64,000 bases of DNA from a virus (IMGVR_UViG_3300015608_002982:25286-89285), one strand, 5' to 3'. Shown: positions 11,880 to 63,399, counted from the first letter of the stretch. The notes: generated from the letters alone by a model not told the origin. Numbers and translations: made by a program.

Positions 11880-12745
11880 GAGACGTGAAAGGATTTTTTA
11901 AGCTTATGGATATAAGTGTTCCTTCTTATGAACACTATGATTATTATGTAGAACAACTTTCAAAAACCGAAAAGTGGAAAAATATAAAAGAACTTATTAA
12001 GTTGTTTGAAGATGCTGAAGAAAAGTATGGCGATCTTTATGAATATAGGTTCAAAAAAGCCAATGAAATTATAGAGTATTTAAAAAATACAAGAGCTTAT
12101 AATGAGCTTATCTATGATAATTTAATTCCTGATTACCCTACAACTAAAAGCTTTGAGTATTCAGAGCATAAAAAGTATCTTTCTATTGATATTAGAAAAG
12201 CTAACTGGGTAGTCTTGAAAAAGTATGATCCTGAATTTGCACCAGAGTTAGGAAACTCATATGATGATTTTATTTCTAAATTTGATGTACCTGAAATATT
12301 CAACCATTCTAAACAGCTAAGGCAGTTTATTTTTGGTAATATCAATCCCAAAAGACAAGGCAAGGCTCAACGAGTTATTGTCCAAGATTTAATAGACCGA
12401 TATGCTCATTTGAACCTTGATATAGCATGTATTAAGAATGATGAAATTATTTATTCTTTTGATACACTTGACCAAATAACTGAAATACTAAATTCAGTTG
12501 ATACAGAAAAGTTTAAAACTAAACTTTTTACTGTTAAAAGAATAGAAGATTTCCGAATTAATACATACCTATCTGAATCAGGAGAAGTTCTATACAGTGA
12601 AATGGTTGGATGCAATGGCAACTTGTTTTTTCTTTACTTAAAGAAATACATACTAAACGAACCTTTAGATATTAGAGACTTGTATTTTAGAATGGATGGT
12701 AATCTTGCTATCTGGAGTGTAGAAGGATTAAAAGTTAGCTTATGA
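11876..12745 (+). CDS. Hypothetical protein, possibly polymerase-palm-like
   Basis: LSIDIRKAN, RQFIFG and KNDEII loosely echo polymerase motifs A/B/C; function unproven. Confidence 0.45.
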   Translation: MRDVKGFFKLMDISVPSYEHYDYYVEQLSKTEKWKNIKELIKLFEDAEEKYGDLYEYRFKKANEIIEYLKNTRAYNELIYDNLIPDYPTTKSFEYSEHKKYLSIDIRKANWVVLKKYDPEFAPELGNSYDDFISKFDVPEIFNHSKQLRQFIFGNINPKRQGKAQRVIVQDLIDRYAHLNLDIACIKNDEIIYSFDTLDQITEILNSVDTEKFKTKLFTVKRIEDFRINTYLSESGEVLYSEMVGCNGNLFFLYLKKYILNEPLDIRDLYFRMDGNLAIWSVEGLKVSL

Positions 12746-12996
12746 TTAGGATAAATATTTATTATAAAGGACAGCTTTCTGATGGATTTAATATACATAC
12801 TGGTAGCAAAATAAACACCATTGATGATGCAAGGTATGTTGTTATATCACATCTTGATAAATTCTATTCTGATGTTAAGTATAAACTAAATTTATTTAGA
12901 CCACATGATGGTCAATCAGAAATAAACTTATACTTTGAAGATGATTTGGGTTTATCAAGAGAACTTAAACTAAGACAAATATTAGAAAATGATTGA
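12742..12996 (+). CDS. Hypothetical protein with C-terminal tag
   Basis: Ends SRELKLRQILEND. Confidence 0.6.
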   Translation: MIRINIYYKGQLSDGFNIHTGSKINTIDDARYVVISHLDKFYSDVKYKLNLFRPHDGQSEINLYFEDDLGLSRELKLRQILEND

Positions 12997-14501: not shown

Positions 14502-14897
14502 ATGATAAAGATGCCAGATAAGATTTATGTTGATAAATCACCAATACACGGCTGGGGTGTTTTTGCCAAGGAAAAAATACTAAAAGACGAAATAATTGAA
14601 GAGTGTCCTATTCTTACCTTACCAATTAAAAAAGATGAGAGTACTTCTCTTCTAATTGACTATAGGTTTAATTTTCCAACTGGTACACAAGATTGGACTG
14701 AACAAGTTATTCCTTTTGGTTATGGTTGTCTTTATAATCACTCAAATCAACCAAATGCTTATTGGTGTTCTATTGGTGTTAAGAGAACATTTATTTTTGT
14801 CGCTTTAAGAGATATAGAACCTGGTGAGGAAATATTTACCTATTACGGTGATGATAACTATTGGAATGATGGTAGAACACATACTGAAGTAAAATGA
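14502..14897 (+). CDS. SET-domain lysine methyltransferase
   Basis: IHGWGVFAKEKI, YNHSNQPNA, ALRDIEPGEEIFTYYG. Confidence 0.9.
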   Translation: MIKMPDKIYVDKSPIHGWGVFAKEKILKDEIIEECPILTLPIKKDESTSLLIDYRFNFPTGTQDWTEQVIPFGYGCLYNHSNQPNAYWCSIGVKRTFIFVALRDIEPGEEIFTYYGDDNYWNDGRTHTEVK

Positions 14898-15265
14898 CAA
14901 AAGAAGATTTTATAGAATTTATAAAAGAGTTAGGTTTTACTCAAACTTGGAGGTCAGAGGGTAATTCCTTTTCTATGGCAACTGATGTAGTTGGACTACC
15001 AAACTCAAACTATGCAGCTTTTGCTGACCAGTTAAATATAACTATAAGTGATGATCATGATTTGTTTCAATTATCACTTTCACAAATGAGTTCACACATG
15101 ATGGGTGGTAAAAACTTTGGTAAATTTAGTTTGAAGACATTTGGTGAAAAAAACGACTTTCAAATAGAGATATTTATGAGTTTTATTAAAGGCTCATTTA
15201 AAAAGGCACCTGATAGTATTATTCAGTTTATGAGAGATAGAAAAATCTCCGATATTTTAAAATAA
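14894..15265 (+). CDS. Hypothetical protein with C-terminal tag
   Basis: Ends MRDRKISDILK. Confidence 0.6.
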   Translation: MTKEDFIEFIKELGFTQTWRSEGNSFSMATDVVGLPNSNYAAFADQLNITISDDHDLFQLSLSQMSSHMMGGKNFGKFSLKTFGEKNDFQIEIFMSFIKGSFKKAPDSIIQFMRDRKISDILK

Positions 15266-43641: not shown

Positions 43642-43656
43642 TTTAATATATACATT

Positions 43657-44622
43657 ATGATTAAAAGATATTTAGATTTTATAAAAGAAGATTTTAATGA
43701 TTTCCATACACTTGGTGAATGGATTGAATCATTAATAGATGATGAATACATTAGAAATATTGTAGCTCGTTATACTAAAGATTCTGATGCTTCTGTTGAT
43801 TTATCAAATGCTATAAATATCTTAGATGATAAAACTAAACAAGAGATAAAATCTCAAGTGGATCACTACTTAGAAAATGGTATAGAAGAAAAAGAACCTC
43901 AGTTTTTAGTTTCAACTGATATTGAATCTTTAACTGAGTCTTTATCTGATGAAATAACAATTGCAGGTAAAGGAATATTTACATCATTTTTAAAATCACT
44001 AACAGGTTTAGGTCAAAAAGAAGGACAACCTAACTGGGATAAATGTCCAGAAGAGTTTTTATTCTACTACTATTATCCTAATATTCAGTCTGAGGTTTTA
44101 AAGCAAATATTTTCAAGATTTAAATCATTATCAAGATATATCGATTTGATAGATTATCAAAAGAATGAAGTTGACTTGTATTTTGGTGTTAGATGTGATG
44201 GTGAATTTGAATATGGTTTACATTATGAGAATAATCAACCAATTGGTAGATTTAAATTATCACAATCCACTATTAAATGGATATGCCAGTTAGATTCTAA
44301 ATCTGCATCTTCTTTGAAAAAAGAATTGGTTAATTTAACATATGCTGATATTTTAACACTTGGTAGAATTAAATCGGAAATGTCTACTTTTCAACCAGGA
44401 TATTATGAAAAGAAATTATCACCAACTGTAAAAGATAAAGTAATATCATTTGGATATTATGGAATCGGTAGATGGGATAATGGTAAATTAGACGAAGGTG
44501 AGTTTCAAAATATTAAAAATAACTTTACTACTTGGTTACTTTCAAAAAGATGGGGTAATAAAGTATTAATCAGTGTTAAACCAATGTCTTTTTGGGTTTA
44601 CTTACATATAAAATTAAAATAA
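43657..44622 (+). CDS. Putative virion internal protein (CTS-like N-terminus)
   Basis: MIKRYLDFIKE; TAATATATA at 43644-43652. Confidence 0.6.
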   Translation: MIKRYLDFIKEDFNDFHTLGEWIESLIDDEYIRNIVARYTKDSDASVDLSNAINILDDKTKQEIKSQVDHYLENGIEEKEPQFLVSTDIESLTESLSDEITIAGKGIFTSFLKSLTGLGQKEGQPNWDKCPEEFLFYYYYPNIQSEVLKQIFSRFKSLSRYIDLIDYQKNEVDLYFGVRCDGEFEYGLHYENNQPIGRFKLSQSTIKWICQLDSKSASSLKKELVNLTYADILTLGRIKSEMSTFQPGYYEKKLSPTVKDKVISFGYYGIGRWDNGKLDEGEFQNIKNNFTTWLLSKRWGNKVLISVKPMSFWVYLHIKLK

Positions 44623-44625
44623 GAT

Positions 44626-44937
44626 ATGAAATACTTAAAGAAATTTAACGAAAATCAAGAACAACAAGATCCTGTATTTGCTTTAACTAAAATTAAAGAA
44701 GAATACTCTGATAATAAAGTTAAAGAAATGTTAGAAAAAGAGATTAAACAGTGGATTCCAGATGAGAACGATCCAGACTTTTATTCTACTTCAGGAAATG
44801 GCGAAGCTGAGGATGTGATTATTAATCAACTTATTGGTTGGTTTGAAAAAAAGTATTATTCTTTGTCTGATGAAAACTTTGAAGAGGTTAAAAGTTTAAT
44901 TCTTAAAGACTATGAGTTCTTAAACTTTAACTACTAA
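44626..44937 (+). CDS. Putative virion internal protein (CTS-like N-terminus)
   Basis: MKYLKKFNE start. Confidence 0.6.
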   Translation: MKYLKKFNENQEQQDPVFALTKIKEEYSDNKVKEMLEKEIKQWIPDENDPDFYSTSGNGEAEDVIINQLIGWFEKKYYSLSDENFEEVKSLILKDYEFLNFNY

Positions 44938-44948
44938 ACTAAAAACAG

Positions 44949-44978
44949 AAACTTTTCTATAACAAGAAAAGTTTTTTT
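44949..44978 (+). terminator. Probable intrinsic terminator
   Basis: AAACTTTTCT-ATAACA-AGAAAAGTTT followed by TTTT; weak AT-rich stem. Confidence 0.45.
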
Positions 44979-44982
44979 GTTT

Positions 44983-45423
44983 ATGGAAAAACCAAGTAAA
45001 GAAGATATAATGAAAAAGTGGGCACCTATTTTAGGTTCTATGGGTATGACCGGCTCACAATTAGATAACTTATCACAGTTAGCCGAAAATCAATCAAATG
45101 AAATATTAAAAGAAAATACACAAGCATCTGAGTTTCCAAGTATATTACCAATTGCTATGCGAGTAGCCGCTAAAACAATATCAAATGACTTAATATTTGC
45201 TTCACAAGAAGAAATTGATGAAGTTAAAAAGAAAGTCCAGTCTGAAAATCGTGATGGTAAAATTGAAGCTATTATCGAAGGTGGTGAGTTTGTTGAAAAG
45301 AAGTTAGAAGATGATGAAGAGTATAAAGAACTGATGAAGAAAGGTGTTACACCAATGTCTGGGCCATCTGGTACATTATTTTATTTAGATTATAAATATG
45401 GAAAAGACGAAGACAATATTTAA
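44983..45423 (+). CDS. Truncated T4 gp23 (major capsid)-like protein with inserted RDGKIEAII tag
   Basis: KEDIMKKWAPIL, LAENQ, ILPIAMRVAAKTISNDL, GVTPMSGPSGTLFYLDYKYGKD align to gp23 N-terminal motifs; start refined to ATG 44983. Confidence 0.75.
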   Translation: MEKPSKEDIMKKWAPILGSMGMTGSQLDNLSQLAENQSNEILKENTQASEFPSILPIAMRVAAKTISNDLIFASQEEIDEVKKKVQSENRDGKIEAIIEGGEFVEKKLEDDEEYKELMKKGVTPMSGPSGTLFYLDYKYGKDEDNI

Positions 45424-45589
45424 GAGTCCTGGTGTTTATGTAACCGAAAAAGACATAAATGTTATGATTATTCATAAAAGATATCAAAGAAGAATTAAGA
45501 TAGGTAAGATATTTGATATTGAAGTTTCTAATAAGGTAATTATAACATCTACACCAAAAGGCACATCAAACTTTCCACAAATCTGGTGA
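45398..45589 (+). CDS. 63-aa chimeric peptide: tail-sheath-like N-terminus + tag + terminase motif III-like C-terminus
   Basis: FKSPGVYVTEKD; QRRIKIGKIF; KVIITSTPKGTSNFPQIW. Confidence 0.6.
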   Translation: MEKTKTIFKSPGVYVTEKDINVMIIHKRYQRRIKIGKIFDIEVSNKVIITSTPKGTSNFPQIW

Positions 45590-45605: not shown

Positions 45606-45614
45606 TAATATATA
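45606..45614 (+). promoter_or_regulatory. TAATATATA phage promoter motif
   Basis: 5 nt upstream of ATG 45620. Confidence 0.55.
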
Positions 45615-45619
45615 CTCTA

Positions 45620-45955
45620 ATGACAAATGTTTATTTAATATGTGCAGAATTTGAAGGTAGAAGACTGTATAAGATAGGTTACACAAGACGTGATGTCTCT
45701 AAAAGAGTTAAAGAGTTAAAGACTGGAAATGGTTCTGACTTATACATTATAAACTTTTTTAAGTCTAAATGGGGAACTAAAATTGAGGCACAATTACATA
45801 GAACATTTAAAAATAAAAAAATAAATGGTGAGTGGTTTGATTTAACCGATGAAGATGTAAAGTCTTTTATGGAAAAATGTAAATTAACACACGATATGTT
45901 AGAGTTAATAACTACTAACAACACTTACTATTTAGAAACTGGTAAACTATATTAA
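45620..45955 (+). CDS. T5orf172/MUG113-type GIY-YIG-superfamily protein
   Basis: YKIGYT...KRVKELKTGN, IEAQLHRTF, INGEWFDL. Confidence 0.8.
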   Translation: MTNVYLICAEFEGRRLYKIGYTRRDVSKRVKELKTGNGSDLYIINFFKSKWGTKIEAQLHRTFKNKKINGEWFDLTDEDVKSFMEKCKLTHDMLELITTNNTYYLETGKLY

Positions 45956-46267: not shown

Positions 46268-46633
46268 ATGAACGAAGAATCTAAAATAATAACCGCTGAT
46301 ATTGTAGATTACTTAGGTAAGTATGAGAATGGTGTTCTTGTACTATTATCTATTGGCTACAAAGATACATTTACAGAAGGAACAATATACTATTCTGATG
46401 AAATGTTAGCATTAACTGTAGATGAATCTATAGAACAGGATCTTGGAACACCTATTGAATTATGGGATGGCTACCGAGATTTACTTATTTCTATACTTAA
46501 AAAAGTAGTACCTTATAACGAAATAATCAATAGATTAGATGAGATCGACTTTGCTGATTACTTTAAAGATAAAGATGAGGATACTCAGGTTGGTGAAGAT
46601 ATAGATAATAGTGATATTAAACAACCTGAGTAA
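46268..46633 (+). CDS. Hypothetical acidic protein
   Basis: 121-aa ORF in operon. Confidence 0.6.
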   Translation: MNEESKIITADIVDYLGKYENGVLVLLSIGYKDTFTEGTIYYSDEMLALTVDESIEQDLGTPIELWDGYRDLLISILKKVVPYNEIINRLDEIDFADYFKDKDEDTQVGEDIDNSDIKQPE

Positions 46634-46742
46634 GCGCACTCCTTACATTCTATTTTTTCTAATATACACATTTTTTGCAAATTTTCATAACAAATTAAAA
46701 TATTTTAACTATAACTATATATTAAAAAATAACAAACATGTA

Positions 46743-47027
46743 ATGATAATAAGTGAGATATGTATAAGAGGCTTTAAATCTTTTGGTAATAATGAGTCCG
46801 TTCTGAAATTAAATACTGAAAAAGGAGAATTGATTCTTCTTGTGGGAAATAACGGAGCCGGAAAATCACTCATTCCTACTACTGAGATTGAGGTTGAAAT
46901 TAATTTAGAAAATCTAAAATTAAAGGATTTTAATAATTTTTTGGAAATAATGGGGAGGGAAAGGATATATATTGAATATATAAAAGAAAATAACTATTCA
47001 CTATATGAGCAATATATTAATCAATGA
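46743..47027 (+). CDS. sbcC: gp46/SbcC N-extein (41 aa, to Walker A Lys) fused to split-intein N-fragment (46866..47027)
   Basis: MIISEICIRGFKSFGN...LVGNNGAGK then intein block A-like SLIPTTEIEV; start refined to ATG 46743. Confidence 0.8.
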   Translation: MIISEICIRGFKSFGNNESVLKLNTEKGELILLVGNNGAGKSLIPTTEIEVEINLENLKLKDFNNFLEIMGRERIYIEYIKENNYSLYEQYINQ

Positions 47028-48546
47028 AAAACAACTAGAAGATTATCTTTCAGATTTTCATCCAGTTAAAAAAAATGAAATTTTAGAAAAATTCAAAGAT
47101 TTTAATTTTAATTGTGGTAAATTTTCTTTTAGAGATAAAATGAAGAGAATTATATCAATGCCTAAATTTGGCAAAAGGACAATTAATTACTGGGTAAGTA
47201 GGGGATGGTCAGAGGAAGAAGCTTTATTAAAAAGAGTACCTGATAACAGAGATCCTGAAACATCACCAATGAATAAATTTTTTTGGATAAAAAGAGGACT
47301 TACAGAAGAAGAAGCTTTATTAAAATTAAAATCACAAAGAAAATCTAATAAGGAATATTGGACGAAAAGGGGATTTTCAGAAACCGAAGCATTGCAAAAA
47401 TCAGTTGAATTTCAAAAAGACTCTAATTCAGCATTTATTAATAGAATTAACTCAGATATGGATTACCGAGAATTGATAAATTCTAAAAGGAATAATAATA
47501 AAAAATATTGGATCAATCTTGGGTTTTCAGAAGAAGAGTCGATAAAAAAAGTATCGGAGAGACAATCGACATTTTCTTTAAAAAAGTGTTTGGATAAATA
47601 TGGTGATATAGAAGGTCATAAAATTTGGCAAAATAGACAGAAAAGATGGCAAAAATCTCTCTTGCTTAGTTTATATAATGGTAAAGACAATAAGGATTCA
47701 AAGACTATAGAGTTCTTCAAAGGAAAATATAAAGAAAATTGGATAGACCATTACTTTAATAAGATATCATTTAAAGAAAAAGATAAAATATTGTTTTTAA
47801 CATCATTTTATAATTATAAAGATTTAATAGACTCATTAATTGCCGATAAATTGAAATTAGTAGAAATATCATCAATTATTCGGTATAAAATTATACAAGA
47901 GATATATTCTTGTACAATAGATGATATGTTTGAATATTTACATAATAATTATGAAAAATATTCAAAAACACCTGAATATTATCATAAAAATTTCCCCGAT
48001 TGGATAGAAAGATTTATAAATGACAATTCTTTTAAAAATAAAAATGAAATAAAAAAATTATTAAACTTCAAGGATTATAAAGAAATGATTATCTACATGA
48101 TTGATAATTATAAAATTACTGATATAAATATTTATCTACAAAGTAAATTGATATCATATTTTTATAATACAAATCATAAGGAAATGTTCAACTTTTTAGT
48201 AAATAGTGACCCAACAATAAAATCAAAATATGGACATATTAGATATTTTAATGGACACATTTGTCGAAGTGATTCGGAATTTTTATTGGCAAAGTTTTTA
48301 CTTAATAATGATATAAAATATGAATATGAGAAGAGATATAAAAATACATTAAAAAGATGTGATTTCTATCTTATAGATTTTGATCTTTATATTGAATATA
48401 CAGGAATGAAGAAAAATGAAATTTGTAATAAGAAGTATAAAGAGAAACAGAAATTTTGTCTAGAAAATAATATCAATTGTATATTTTCTAACAATATTCA
48501 AGAAATAAAAAATAAAATATTAAATGAAATTAAAATTAACAATTGA
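47005..48546 (+). mobile_element. Free-standing homing-endonuclease-like gene separating the split intein halves
   Basis: Four YWxxRGxSEEEA repeats, two about 70-aa helical repeats, C-terminal RSDSE...RCDFYL...YIEY PD-(D/E)XK domain; GAATATATA at 46974-46982. Confidence 0.75.
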
Positions 48547-50521
48547 ACAATTGAACAAACTTCAAGAATCAATTAAATTAATCGATAATTATGAAATAAA
48601 TGTTTCAACTGAAAATGGATTTAAAAAAATCAAAGCTGTTGGTGTAACAAGTAGAAACTCAGAAAAAATAAGAATTAAAACAAAGGATTTTGAATTGGTA
48701 GGGTCTCCATTTCATAGAGTAAAATATCAAAATAATTGGTTATATCTAAAAGATATTAAAATAGGAGATAAAGTAAATACAAAAAATGGAATACAAGAAA
48801 TTTTAGATATTAGTTTTGATAATAATAAAGAAGACTTATGGGATATAGAAGTTGATGGACATGAATATTATTCAAATGGAATCTTAAGCCACAACTCTTC
48901 TCTACTAGACTCATTTGATTACACACTTTACGGTAAAGTAAGAGGTCGTAAAAAAAGATGGGCTACTTTATCAACACTACCAAATAGAATTAATGGCGAA
49001 CTTCTTAATAGAATCAAATTTGTTTCTAATAGTACAGAGGTTGAAATAAAAAGAGGTATCTCACCAAGCGTACTTGAGTTGTGGGAGAATGGAGTTCTTA
49101 ATGAAAGAGCTGGTAAAGCCAATGTAGATGAAAAGATTGAGAATTACATTGGAATGGATATTGAGACATTCAAATCATTTATTTCAATGTCTATTAATGA
49201 TTTCAAAAATTTTATTTCATTATCAAACGAAGAAAAACAACTTCTTCTTGATAAGTTATTTAATCTTGAAGTCATCAACATTCTCAACAGTATCTTGAAA
49301 GATATTGCTAAAAATAATAAAGTAAGAGCAGCTTCATTTGATGCTGAAATTAGAACTTTAGATGATTCAATTGCCTCTATTAAAAGGTCAATTGAAAAAG
49401 CACTTGAAAGAGAAAGACAAGAAGCACAATTAGCACTTGAAAGAGAAAAAGAAGATATACAAGCTGAGATTGATAGAATTACAAATGAAATGAATTCTAG
49501 AAAAGATGAGTATAAAGCTCTAAAAGAAAAGATTGATAAAATCAAAGAAAAAGATGCTGAACTCGTTGATGAGATGGATAAGGAAAAAAGACAGTTAATT
49601 AACTGTCAAAATGATATCAGAAATGTTCAAAAAGAATTAGACTTGTATGATTCTGGAAAATGTCCGACCTGTAAAACAGATTTCAACTCTGAACACTTTT
49701 CTAATTTAAGAACTACTTTAGAAGAAAAGAAATTAGGATTTGAAAATATCAAACTTGAAATTGAAGCAAACATTACTAAAGTGAAAGAAAGACAAACTAA
49801 GTTAAAATCACTTTCTGAATCAACAACAACTGCATTTAATGATTTAAGTTATTTATTAAAGACTCACAAGTCTGAAATTGACAAACTAAATCAAAAGAAA
49901 GCATCACAGACCGTTACTGTTAATACAACTCCTTCTGTTAATATTCAAGAGTTTCAAAATACAATTGAAGAGCTTGAAGAAAAGAAAATAGTATCAACTG
50001 ATAATATAAGTGTTTGTAAAGAAAAAGAACTTTACTACAAAGAGTTAAATCGTATCTTTGGTGAAGATGGTGTTAAGAAGTCTATTATTGCTGGTATTAT
50101 TAAGCCAATAAACCATTTTATTTCTGAAAATGTTAAAAAGATGGGACTTCCATTTGAAGTTAAATTAGATGAGACTTTTACAGCTGAGATTAAACAATTA
50201 GGTTCATCAATTGAACATGACTCACTTTCTACCGGTGAGACTAAAAAAGTAAATATTAGTATTTTAATTGCTTATCTAAAGCTAATTAGAACTAAACGAC
50301 ATATCAATATTTTGTTCTTAGATGAGGTTTTTTCATCAATTGATATCGAGGGTATAGATTCTATTTTGGCACTCTTAAAATCGTTTGCAAACGATTATAA
50401 CATCAATATCTTTGTTGTACATCATGCTATTTTGAATCAAGAAATGTTTGATAGAATATTAAAGATTAATAAAGAGGTTTTCTCTTCAATAGAAGAAGTA
50501 AATTTGGATTATGCAAGTTGA
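48524..50521 (+). CDS. sbcC: Split-intein C-fragment (48524..48895, 124 aa) fused to gp46/SbcC/Rad50-like C-extein
   Basis: LTIEQL, VSTENGFKKI, SPFH, WDIEVDGHEYYSNGILSHN|SSLLD; zinc hook CPTC, LSTGE signature, LFLDEVF, VVHH. Confidence 0.9.
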   Translation: MKLKLTIEQLNKLQESIKLIDNYEINVSTENGFKKIKAVGVTSRNSEKIRIKTKDFELVGSPFHRVKYQNNWLYLKDIKIGDKVNTKNGIQEILDISFDNNKEDLWDIEVDGHEYYSNGILSHNSSLLDSFDYTLYGKVRGRKKRWATLSTLPNRINGELLNRIKFVSNSTEVEIKRGISPSVLELWENGVLNERAGKANVDEKIENYIGMDIETFKSFISMSINDFKNFISLSNEEKQLLLDKLFNLEVINILNSILKDIAKNNKVRAASFDAEIRTLDDSIASIKRSIEKALERERQEAQLALEREKEDIQAEIDRITNEMNSRKDEYKALKEKIDKIKEKDAELVDEMDKEKRQLINCQNDIRNVQKELDLYDSGKCPTCKTDFNSEHFSNLRTTLEEKKLGFENIKLEIEANITKVKERQTKLKSLSESTTTAFNDLSYLLKTHKSEIDKLNQKKASQTVTVNTTPSVNIQEFQNTIEELEEKKIVSTDNISVCKEKELYYKELNRIFGEDGVKKSIIAGIIKPINHFISENVKKMGLPFEVKLDETFTAEIKQLGSSIEHDSLSTGETKKVNISILIAYLKLIRTKRHINILFLDEVFSSIDIEGIDSILALLKSFANDYNINIFVVHHAILNQEMFDRILKINKEVFSSIEEVNLDYAS

Positions 50522-52418: not shown

Positions 52419-52607
52419 ATGCTATTAGTAAAAGTAGAAGGAACAACAATTGAAAAAGCTCTTAAAACACTTAAAAGAAAGTGGGATAGAACAAAAGCTA
52501 TGAGAGAGTTGAGAGAAAGAAAAGAGTTTGTTAAGAAGTCGGTTAAAAGAAGAGCCGAGATTAACAAGGCTAAGTATGTTCAAGAGAAATACGGTAATAA
52601 TGATTAA
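52419..52607 (+). CDS. rpsU: Ribosomal protein bS21
   Basis: IEKALKTLKRK...LRERKEFVKKSVKRR. Confidence 0.88.
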   Translation: MLLVKVEGTTIEKALKTLKRKWDRTKAMRELRERKEFVKKSVKRRAEINKAKYVQEKYGNND

Positions 52608-52896
52608 AAAATTACTTAGTTTATTTCCTAATCAAAATAACAAAACTTATGATCTAGGAAAACTACAGAAAGTTGGCTTCATAAAAACTTTAGAAGATTT
52701 ATCTGCTTGTCCTAATTGTAAAAGTAAAAATATTGCTTGGAAGTTTTATATTCCAACTGATGGATCTAAGCCAACTCTAGACCACGAATCTGTTTGTAAA
52801 GACTGTGGTTATAAGGATAAAAAAGGTGAGTTTGAAAAAACAAATAAAGCTATTTTAAGAAATAAAAAAATTAATCAAATATTAGATGAGTTTTAA
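52600..52896 (+). CDS. Zinc-ribbon protein with C-terminal tag
   Basis: CPNC...CKDC; ends LRNKKINQILDEF; start refined to ATG 52600. Confidence 0.65.
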   Translation: MIKKLLSLFPNQNNKTYDLGKLQKVGFIKTLEDLSACPNCKSKNIAWKFYIPTDGSKPTLDHESVCKDCGYKDKKGEFEKTNKAILRNKKINQILDEF

Positions 52897-62567: not shown

Positions 62568-62834
62568 ATGAATGATAAATATTTAAAAGGCTTACTAAAA
62601 GACTACTACAATATTGGCGGAGGCAAAAAATATGGAGATTATTTAGTTTATGGTTTAGATAAAGATGATTCAGACTTATCAGACTACTCCGACTATTCTG
62701 ATTTATATACTCAAATAGTTAAATACTATAATGTAAAGACTGAAGAAGAATCAGAAGAACAAAAGGCTATAAGACTGGCTAAAGAAAAAGCCGAAAAAAG
62801 AAATAATAAAATTGATCAAATTTTAGGTGAATAG
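62568..62834 (+). CDS. Hypothetical protein with C-terminal tag
   Basis: Ends KRNNKIDQILGE. Confidence 0.6.
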   Translation: MNDKYLKGLLKDYYNIGGGKKYGDYLVYGLDKDDSDLSDYSDYSDLYTQIVKYYNVKTEEESEEQKAIRLAKEKAEKRNNKIDQILGE

Positions 62835-63399
62835 TATATCACAAATATCAATTGCAAATTGGGTTACGGCTTTTTTAATAGTCGTGCCTTTATTTGCTTT
62901 TTTTATTTCAATTCCGAGTTTTATATCTATGTATAAACTTGGTTTCAAGGTTTATATAGAACAATTGGTACTTTTGAGAACAATGTTAAGAAAACTATCA
63001 ACTGGTTATAAGGTAACTGTAAATCAATCCTATGCATATAGTGGTGTTGGTTATAATGGCCCACCAACAATAACACAAGTTGAGACTAATCATTTCTTTC
63101 CAATCGTTATTAATAAAGACAATTTATTAGTTCTTAATAAAAAAGAAGGACCTTTTAATACTTTACATATTCAATATTGTAAGCATATAAATGATAATTG
63201 GGAAAATAATATAGTGCAAATAAAAACCAGTAGTTGTTTATTTACTCAAATTCTAAATGATAGATTTCAAAAGAAAGTTGATAATCTTATGAAAGAATCT
63301 GTTCAACTTGACGATGTTGAAAATCTAAATGAACTATTAAATAGTCAAATAAAATCTATTACAAGAGAAGATAAACTTAATGCTATATTAAATGATTAA
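62827..63399 (+). CDS. N-terminally anchored membrane protein with C-terminal tag
   Basis: Hydrophobic N-terminus; ends TREDKLNAILND. Confidence 0.6.
   Translation: MNSISQISIANWVTAFLIVVPLFAFFISIPSFISMYKLGFKVYIEQLVLLRTMLRKLSTGYKVTVNQSYAYSGVGYNGPPTITQVETNHFFPIVINKDNLLVLNKKEGPFNTLHIQYCKHINDNWENNIVQIKTSSCLFTQILNDRFQKKVDNLMKESVQLDDVENLNELLNSQIKSITREDKLNAILND

Follow-up and report, generated by a model that had tools for sequence, protein, structure and literature searches.

A sheath-like micro-protein with an inserted peptide tag in Mahaphage-like huge phages

In contractile sheaths, like those of T4 (gp18), the R-pyocins, and the T6SS, the lattice is meshed by the N-terminal arms: the arm of each subunit contributes an additional strand to a sheet of its neighbour. 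MicroProteins, e.g., the eukaryotic Id and LITTLE ZIPPER proteins, are small paralogues with a single motif, which regulate larger proteins by non-productive pairing. To our knowledge, the microProtein concept has been established in plants and animals, but not in phages. Short terminal targeting peptides are represented by the cargo-loading peptides of encapsulins and by the capsid-targeting sequence of T4. Lastly, the small T4 proteins Srd and Srh resemble fragments of host sigma factors.

The protein of 63 aa described here, which we call mini-sheath, has features in common with these systems and differs from each of them. Like the N-terminal arm (N-arm) of T4 gp18 and of the giant sheath of its own clade, it exhibits the motif order ..[KR]PG[VI][YF][VI].E.D.S.., a strand, and ..KGP.N.P.., and its arm, taken by itself, is predicted to adopt an extended form, as expected for a segment that pairs as a strand with a neighbouring subunit. 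In contrast to contractile sheath proteins, it is tiny, has no globular domains (no PF04984), and contains an additional basic helix of about 14 residues, which the sheath lacks. With motif III of TerL (T4 gp17, and the 714-aa TerL of the clade) it has only a local string in common, but neither the ATPase fold nor a profile match. As in the case of microProteins, a tiny paralogue appears to keep only the interaction segment of a large self-assembling protein. However, the added tag has no counterpart in microProteins. As for the targeting peptides of encapsulins and T4, an amphipathic peptide of about ten residues is found on many otherwise unrelated small proteins, in most cases at their very C-terminal end, but the tag has an unrelated sequence, its carriers cluster outside the structural module, and it is internal in mini-sheath. 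In the searchable literature no description was found of the mini-sheath family, of tagged mini-copies of capsid or sheath proteins, or of the terminal tag.

The window, i.e., the whole stretch of 64 kb that was analysed, is part of a viral record of 89 kb and has a G+C content of 28%. Among named genomes, those of two uncultured phages (634,780 and 642,428 bp) are the closest to it. The predicted hosts of the Mahaphage clade are Bacteroidetes (Al-Shayeb et al., 2020, PMC7162821). The 89-kb record contains no genuine gene for a sheath, a capsid protein, or a terminase, and therefore all comparisons were made against relatives, including a genome of 476 kb with 683 ORFs (G001). Mini-sheath is very probably a conserved micro-protein of Mahaphage-like huge phages, which was derived from the 5'-end of the phages' own giant sheath gene, has kept the N-arm and most likely also the next sheath block, and has acquired a basic amphipathic helix of about 14 residues between the two. 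The features of the locus are summarized in Table 1.

Table 1. Features of the mini-sheath locus (positions refer to the 64-kb window).
Feature	Position	Strand	Evidence
321-aa and 103-aa genes preceding the mini-gp23/mini-sheath pair, after a promoter-like TAATATATA element	43644..44937	+	Motif positions; synteny in 6/7 relatives
Hairpin with 10-bp stem and U-run, immediately upstream of the mini-gp23 start	44949..44978	+	Folding energy -12.5 kcal/mol, z -4.0
Mini-gp23 gene, 146 aa, N-terminal fragment paralogue of the major capsid protein	44983..45423	+	PHROG, hhalign, clusters, tag match
Mini-sheath gene, 63 aa, probable stand-alone paralogue of the tail sheath N-terminus with inserted tag	45398..45589	+	ORF list, homologues, hhalign, dN/dS
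N-arm, residues 8-24 (..KSPGVYV.E.D..), sheath N-terminal strand motif	45419..45469	+	hhalign, genome profile matches, conservation
Tag, residues 27-39 (K.Y.RRIKIGKIF), inserted relative to the sheath, most conserved block	45476..45514	+	AF2, hhalign, motif counts
Block 3, residues 46-63 (.VIITSTPKG..NFPQIW)	45533..45586	+	Collinear with sheath residues ~34-50; local likeness to TerL motif III
Second TAATATATA element and 111-aa T5orf172/MUG113 gene (GIY-YIG clan), conserved downstream neighbour	45606..45955	+	Pfam, motif conserved in relatives, synteny

Judged from its conservation and its pattern of codon changes, mini-sheath is a real gene. Its ATG start codon resides within two codons (Tyr-Gly) close to the 3'-end of the preceding gene, so that the two genes overlap by 26 nt, and it ends with TGA TGA. 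A sequence-only reading had described this short ORF and its overlap with the preceding gene, and both were confirmed; the three peptides that it had quoted were all found, with the start resembling a sheath at residues 8-19, the tag at residues 30-39, and the tail resembling a terminase at residues 46-63. A word-indexed search yielded a family of 64 cluster representatives at 90% identity, which have lengths of 52-83 aa, identities of 60-84%, and E-values down to 4e-25. Among 1.84 billion representatives (50% identity), an exhaustive HMM search retrieved 44 matches at E <= 0.001, all of them small proteins with the exception of the repeat protein P0088. The latter was rejected as a family member, because it is an 83-residue tandem-repeat protein with a spurious match of -3 to +2 bits per repeat. 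All three segments are kept in the consensus of the 64 clusters. The invariant residues (K27, Y29, R31-I35, K37-F39) all lie within the central basic block, and S10, P11, G12, V13, and E17 are conserved to at least 90%, although the family members have otherwise retained only about 36-50% identity. Pairwise dN/dS values for five loci range from 0.33 to 0.83, and more than one codon is used in 14 of 24 invariant residue columns, which together indicate that the protein is constrained, and not a DNA element. At none of the loci examined is the reading frame disrupted. An alternative genetic code (table 4), under which the TGA TGA would be read through in frame into T5orf172 in the window, was considered and rejected: this frame relation is lost in one relative (L002) and is therefore coincidental, and the large ORFs are intact under table 11.

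The gene order is also conserved. The genes for the 321-aa and 103-aa proteins, mini-gp23, mini-sheath, T5orf172, a 90-aa protein, and a 121-aa protein follow one another in six of seven related loci. The protein encoded downstream of mini-sheath matches the Pfam families MUG113 (E 6e-21) and T5orf172 (E 6e-13). Mini-sheath is adjacent to recombination genes (SbcC) and to this gene of the GIY-YIG clan, not to tail genes, and in a relative its distance to the structural module is about 130 kb, which counts against the sheath-related role proposed below. One alternative is that mini-sheath is a non-functional leftover of a duplicated sheath 5'-end, which is carried along by the T5orf172 gene. 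The conserved presence of that gene directly downstream would fit, as would other mobile insertions in the genome, e.g., in the interrupted SbcC gene. However, a leftover would hardly be found in 64 clusters with dN/dS values below 1 and with synonymous changes within invariant residues, nor would it be expected to have a stable position in six of seven relatives and an intact frame everywhere, and thus we regard this explanation as extremely improbable. The ORF had also been said to look designed rather than random; the 64 conserved clusters show that it is indeed not random, while no evidence for a design was found.

Searches against known families did not identify mini-sheath. Pfam and PHROGs gave no family for the ORF (E <= 1) or for long family members, a PDB profile search with the family yielded only chance matches with E ~1 and no sheath, and a search of the ESM Atlas gave no usable match. 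No sheath and no terminase is among the 44 matches of the exhaustive library search. The link to the sheath therefore rests on the clade's own sheath. The Pfam sheath models do not report the sheath N-arm, and even the first 150 aa of the genuine sheath retrieve only DUF2586, below the threshold of that model.

The genuine sheath proteins of related near-complete genomes comprise about 1296-1314 aa (L015, 404..4294, minus strand; L016, 728..4672, plus strand). The profile of this giant sheath matches the C-terminal domain in T4 gp18 structures with an E-value of 4e-5, and therefore the ORF used as reference is a true sheath. Between its conserved N- and C-terminal parts about 800 residues are inserted, and it has more than 1,100 relatives at E <= 1e-10. 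The sheath of the clade starts with ..YKRPGIFIEE.D.S.., which is followed about 20 residues further on by ..VIGVSKKGP.NTP.. and then by ..DLESIFG, and the elements of the mini-sheath family occur in the same order. Alignment of the family with the sheath N-terminus using hhalign (96.2%, E 2.6e-9) resulted in 62 collinear columns, which correspond to sheath residues 4-65, and the basic tag of about 14 residues appeared as an insertion. The same residues 4-65 were found when the full sheath of 1296 aa was used (89.6%, E 1.9e-6). The N-arm sub-alignment alone matched the sheath N-terminus (93.9%, E 1.5e-7) and did not match TerL (0.3%), while the tag sub-alignment matched neither of the two (0.2%). 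In six-frame translations of four related genomes, the family profile found the first residues of the genuine sheath ORF in all four cases and TerL in none. The sheath-like character of the N-terminus, which had been proposed by the sequence-only reading, was thus borne out. In contrast, its view that two unrelated signature peptides have been stitched together is not supported, in view of the collinearity of the whole family with a single stretch of the sheath, interrupted only by the tag. The N-terminal arm and the first conserved block of mini-sheath are collinear with those of a bona fide sheath, but its 63 residues contain nothing of the globular core (PF04984 and the C-terminal domain) that builds the wall in the genuine sheath of relatives, and therefore it is a fragment paralogue and not a sheath subunit.

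The C-terminal segment, block 3, requires a closer look, because it had been interpreted as motif III of the terminase. The genuine TerL of the related genomes is encoded by a separate gene and comprises about 714 aa. A local similarity to it does exist: the family aligns with TerL over 16 columns at motif III with 56% identity (8.6%, E 0.0039), and the string ..IITSTP.G...F.. of block 3 is shared with TerL residues 234-249. When block 3 was isolated by cutting the alignment at the end of the window protein, the match to TerL had an E-value of 5e-4 (30.8%, 10 columns), compared to an E-value of 0.03 for the sheath, in this case over 18 columns and at the collinear position. The separate comparison of the two halves thus gave a match to the sheath but not to TerL for the N-arm, and a better score with TerL than with the sheath for the short block 3. 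However, in longer members (P0055, P0070, P0071, P0099, and others) block 3 continues without a break into the sheath-type sequence ..GP.N.P..I....DF..IFG. The parts following the tag of 11 long members matched sheath residues 38-65 with an E-value of 2.8e-5, compared to 0.23 for TerL, and even for four members with an IITST-type block the sheath (E 4e-4) was preferred over TerL (E 3e-3). The position of block 3 is that of the second conserved block of the sheath N-terminus (..KGP.N.P..). The 63 residues include neither Walker A nor Walker B nor the catalytic glutamate, and there is no match to Terminase_6N or to a PHROG terminase, and therefore mini-sheath is not a terminase. Based on these alignments, block 3 is most likely the second conserved block of the sheath N-terminus, with a local likeness to motif III of TerL. 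The likeness recognized by the sequence-only reading is thus genuine over 10-16 columns (E 5e-4 to 4e-3), whereas a terminase origin is disfavoured by the sheath-type tails of the long members and by the missing TerL matches in the four genomes. Taken together, the collinear alignment, these tails, and the outcome of the genome searches (four of four for the sheath, none of four for TerL) do not support a chimera of sheath and terminase.

Two observations speak for a small TerL-derived piece in block 3: the isolated block scores better against TerL, and the distant member P0100 contains an IITSTP.G block and, in addition, a separate sheath-type block further downstream. Both would be explained if an ORF derived from the sheath had received block 3 as a copy from the terminase gene, as a true recombination accident that was retained without any decoy function. 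We consider this improbable, as the TerL match spans only 10-12 columns, block 3 resides exactly at the collinear sheath position, and P0055, P0070, and P0071 have it fused without interruption to the ..GP.N.P.. tail.

A composite of sheath start, tag, and terminase motif III could also serve as a decoy for host sensors such as Avs. The real local likeness to motif III of the clade's TerL described above would be in favour of such a function, several mini-ORFs of the clade mimic pieces of the capsid protein, and fragment mimicry has a precedent in Srd and Srh of T4. However, all of the family can be aligned collinearly with a single protein, the sheath, and the long members join block 3 to a tail that is specific for the sheath. 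TerL was found in none of the four genome searches, and terminase matches are absent from Pfam and PHROGs. As the terminase piece is not supported, the decoy explanation loses its main premise. Strings of the type strand-T-[AS]-T-x-x-G recur by chance in unrelated folds, as exemplified by P0088. Avs sensors have been reported to recognize core folds that are conserved, and the sheath is not among their known targets (PMC13581612), whereas mini-sheath is predicted by AF2 to have no fold beyond one helix. A decoy role is thus very improbable. For annotation, this example illustrates that a short resemblance to a motif, such as IITSTP.G, may be misleading.

Block 3 is absent or replaced in three of the related loci. 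A variant of 39 aa consists of N-arm and tag only (L006, ~4491), and a variant of 65 aa has a different C-terminus (L003, 2790..2987); at the latter locus a second related ORF of 153 aa follows T5orf172. A variant of 84 aa has a degenerate N-arm and a sheath-type ..IPIG.. tail (L002, 3818..4072).

The central basic segment had been called a tag by the sequence-only reading, and motif counts verified this. In the set of 73 ORFs of the window, the motif R..K[IL]..[IL][LFIV] occurs nine times, compared to 0.5 in shuffled sequences (maximum of 3), an enrichment of about 18-fold. In the 683 ORFs of G001 it occurs 69 times, with 3.5 expected and a shuffle maximum of 9, and thus about 10% of the phage proteins are tagged. 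The carriers in G001 have a median length of 114 aa, and in 51 of the 69 the tag is not more than six residues away from the C-terminus, with the consensus R-[DE]-x-K-[IL]-x-x-[IL]-[LI]-[KN]-end. In mini-sheath and mini-gp23, in contrast, it is internal. Residues 31-39 of mini-sheath match the motif and represent a more basic variant, R-R-I-K-I-G-K-I-F. Codon choice inside the tag mirrors the genome-wide usage, and I and L interchange, which indicates that the motif has been selected as a peptide. A DNA-level cause for the conservation of mini-sheath and of the tag is ruled out by these codon frequencies together with the variation of synonymous codons. In the AF2 model of mini-sheath, residues 27-39 form the only predicted helix, with pLDDT values of 80-87 compared to a mean of 70 for the whole model, and both arms are extended. 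Examples of tag sites on small proteins of the window are 12742-12996, 14894-15265, 52528-52896, 62568-62834, and 62827-63399, and examples from G001 are L042-L065. The tag carriers of G001 are grouped at about 354-364, 389-411, and 434-474 kb, outside the structural module. Three tandem tiny ORFs of 47, 61, and 49 aa (G001:C1:434186-434657, minus strand) each end in the basic variant ..KKIK.IF.., which looks like a local amplification of tag-only peptides.

Mini-sheath is not the only tagged fragment of a virion protein. The upstream gene had been proposed to encode a mini-version of gp23, and this assignment held: mini-gp23 matches phrog_138 (E 2.2e-5) and the N-terminus of the genuine capsid protein of 564 aa (hhalign 94%, E 1.4e-7), which is of the HK97 type. 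Its family comprises 564 clusters, and its internal copy of the tag is located at residue 92 (R-D-G-K-I-E-A-I-I). The AF2 model of mini-gp23 was uninformative (pLDDT 48). With the capsid-protein profile, several small ORFs that match the spine-helix region were found in G001 and in a second relative, G002 (E 3e-8 and 2e-6). These ORFs have lengths of 68-86 aa and cover phrog_138 positions ~180-250 (L019 and L021 in G002; L022, L023, G001:C1:75694-75939, and 338713-338835 in G001). Four of the small ORFs with capsid fragments end in R..xSINKIF, the same basic variant of the tag. Further weak matches to capsid fragments were seen in other small ORFs. Searches for fragments with portal and tail-tube profiles retrieved only the genuine genes, and therefore, by profile evidence, tagged mini-copies exist only of the two lattice-forming proteins, capsid and sheath. 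A single-sequence phmmer comparison of 279 small with 256 large ORFs of G001 missed even the links that are supported by profiles; it is thus too insensitive to say anything about how general fragment mimicry is.

Mini-gp23 and mini-sheath are probably made together, because their stop and start codons overlap and because a conserved hairpin with a U-run lies directly in front of the pair. Hairpins comparable to the one of the window were found at all seven related loci. The hairpin is AU-rich and has the loop UAUAAC, and its U-run ends a few bases 5' of the start codon. The z-scores in the window and at equivalent sites (L002-L005, L007, L008) range from -2.5 to -4.8, and in L003 a hairpin before mini-gp23 is retained although its sequence differs. 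Possible roles of this element are those of a terminator, an attenuator, or a translational operator.

The prominence of the tag leads to the question whether the sheath-derived parts of mini-sheath have a role at all. The tag helix might bind a hub that is common to the roughly 10% of tagged phage proteins, e.g., a host or phage protease, a polymerase, a chaperone, or an encapsulin-like cargo-loading site in the capsid, while the sheath-like arms would be mere inherited scaffolding and the sheath would never be touched. In agreement with this, the tag is the most conserved block and contains all invariant residues, it is the only confidently folded element in the AF2 model, and it is common to dozens of unrelated small proteins grouped outside the structural module; in addition, block 3 is dispensable in some members, and the gene is located among non-structural genes. 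However, the conservation of S-P-G-V and E17 to at least 90%, despite an overall identity of 36-50%, is hard to explain for an arm without a role, and the tag has been joined specifically to fragments of capsid protein and sheath, not to portal or tube fragments. We therefore regard a purely tag-driven function as unlikely.

As a whole, a sheath-derived tagged micro-protein with a role as adaptor or regulator is in our opinion the best explanation, and on balance a probable one. The mechanism itself is a tentative proposal, possible on the basis of analogy to known sheaths. Because its arm is predicted to be extended by itself and shows the same degree of conservation as the arm of genuine sheaths, mini-sheath might dock via strand addition onto a sheath subunit or onto the free end of the sheath. 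The tag helix would then engage a common partner of the other tagged proteins, and mini-sheath would act as a tagged cap, an adaptor, or a regulator of the assembly or timing of the sheath lattice. Mini-gp23 might fulfil the same role for the capsid lattice. An even more far-reaching possibility, which is rather doubtful at present, is a proteome-wide peptide-tag system, in which about one of ten proteins ends with R-[DE]-x-K-[IL]-x-x-[IL]-L, and in which tagged mini-copies of the capsid N-terminus, the capsid spine-helix region, and the sheath N-arm would couple the tag partner (a loading site, a protease, or a chaperone) to capsid and tail assembly, e.g., as timed caps that delay polymerisation or as adaptors for the loading of tagged cargo. 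If true, micro-proteins derived from a virus's own proteins would represent a novel way of controlling its assembly. If the reading of mini-sheath as a tagged sheath fragment holds, it would exemplify a route of giant phages to new regulators, namely, cutting off the interface end of a self-assembling virion protein and adding a short shared tag. The strongly enriched terminal peptide motif, so far undescribed, is present on about 10% of the proteome in an abundant clade of huge phages that infect Bacteroidota, and two very widespread "hypothetical" small genes can now be given names, mini-gp23 (564 clusters) and mini-sheath (more than 64).

Several additional features of the window deserve mention. 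The motif AATATATA, mostly in the form TAATATATA, is present at 15 sites on the plus strand and 18 sites on the minus strand (e.g., 194, 15660, 36520, 43645, and 45607). The sites are located 5-30 nt upstream of start codons, and because the distance is often only 5-6 nt, they suggest leaderless or near-leaderless transcripts. A similar motif, TTATATATA, is found 27-30 nt upstream of the genuine sheath and capsid genes in relatives. Window ORFs for which links to portal and PolB had been proposed received no support from PHROGs or Pfam. A gene for an SbcC/gp46-like protein (46611-50521) is broken just after the Walker A motif (~46870). The interruption of about 1.6 kb contains an ORF for a protein of 513 aa (47005..48546), and the remainder of SbcC resumes in 48524..50521. 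The homologue in the related locus L007 (5897..7645, 582 aa) is uninterrupted.
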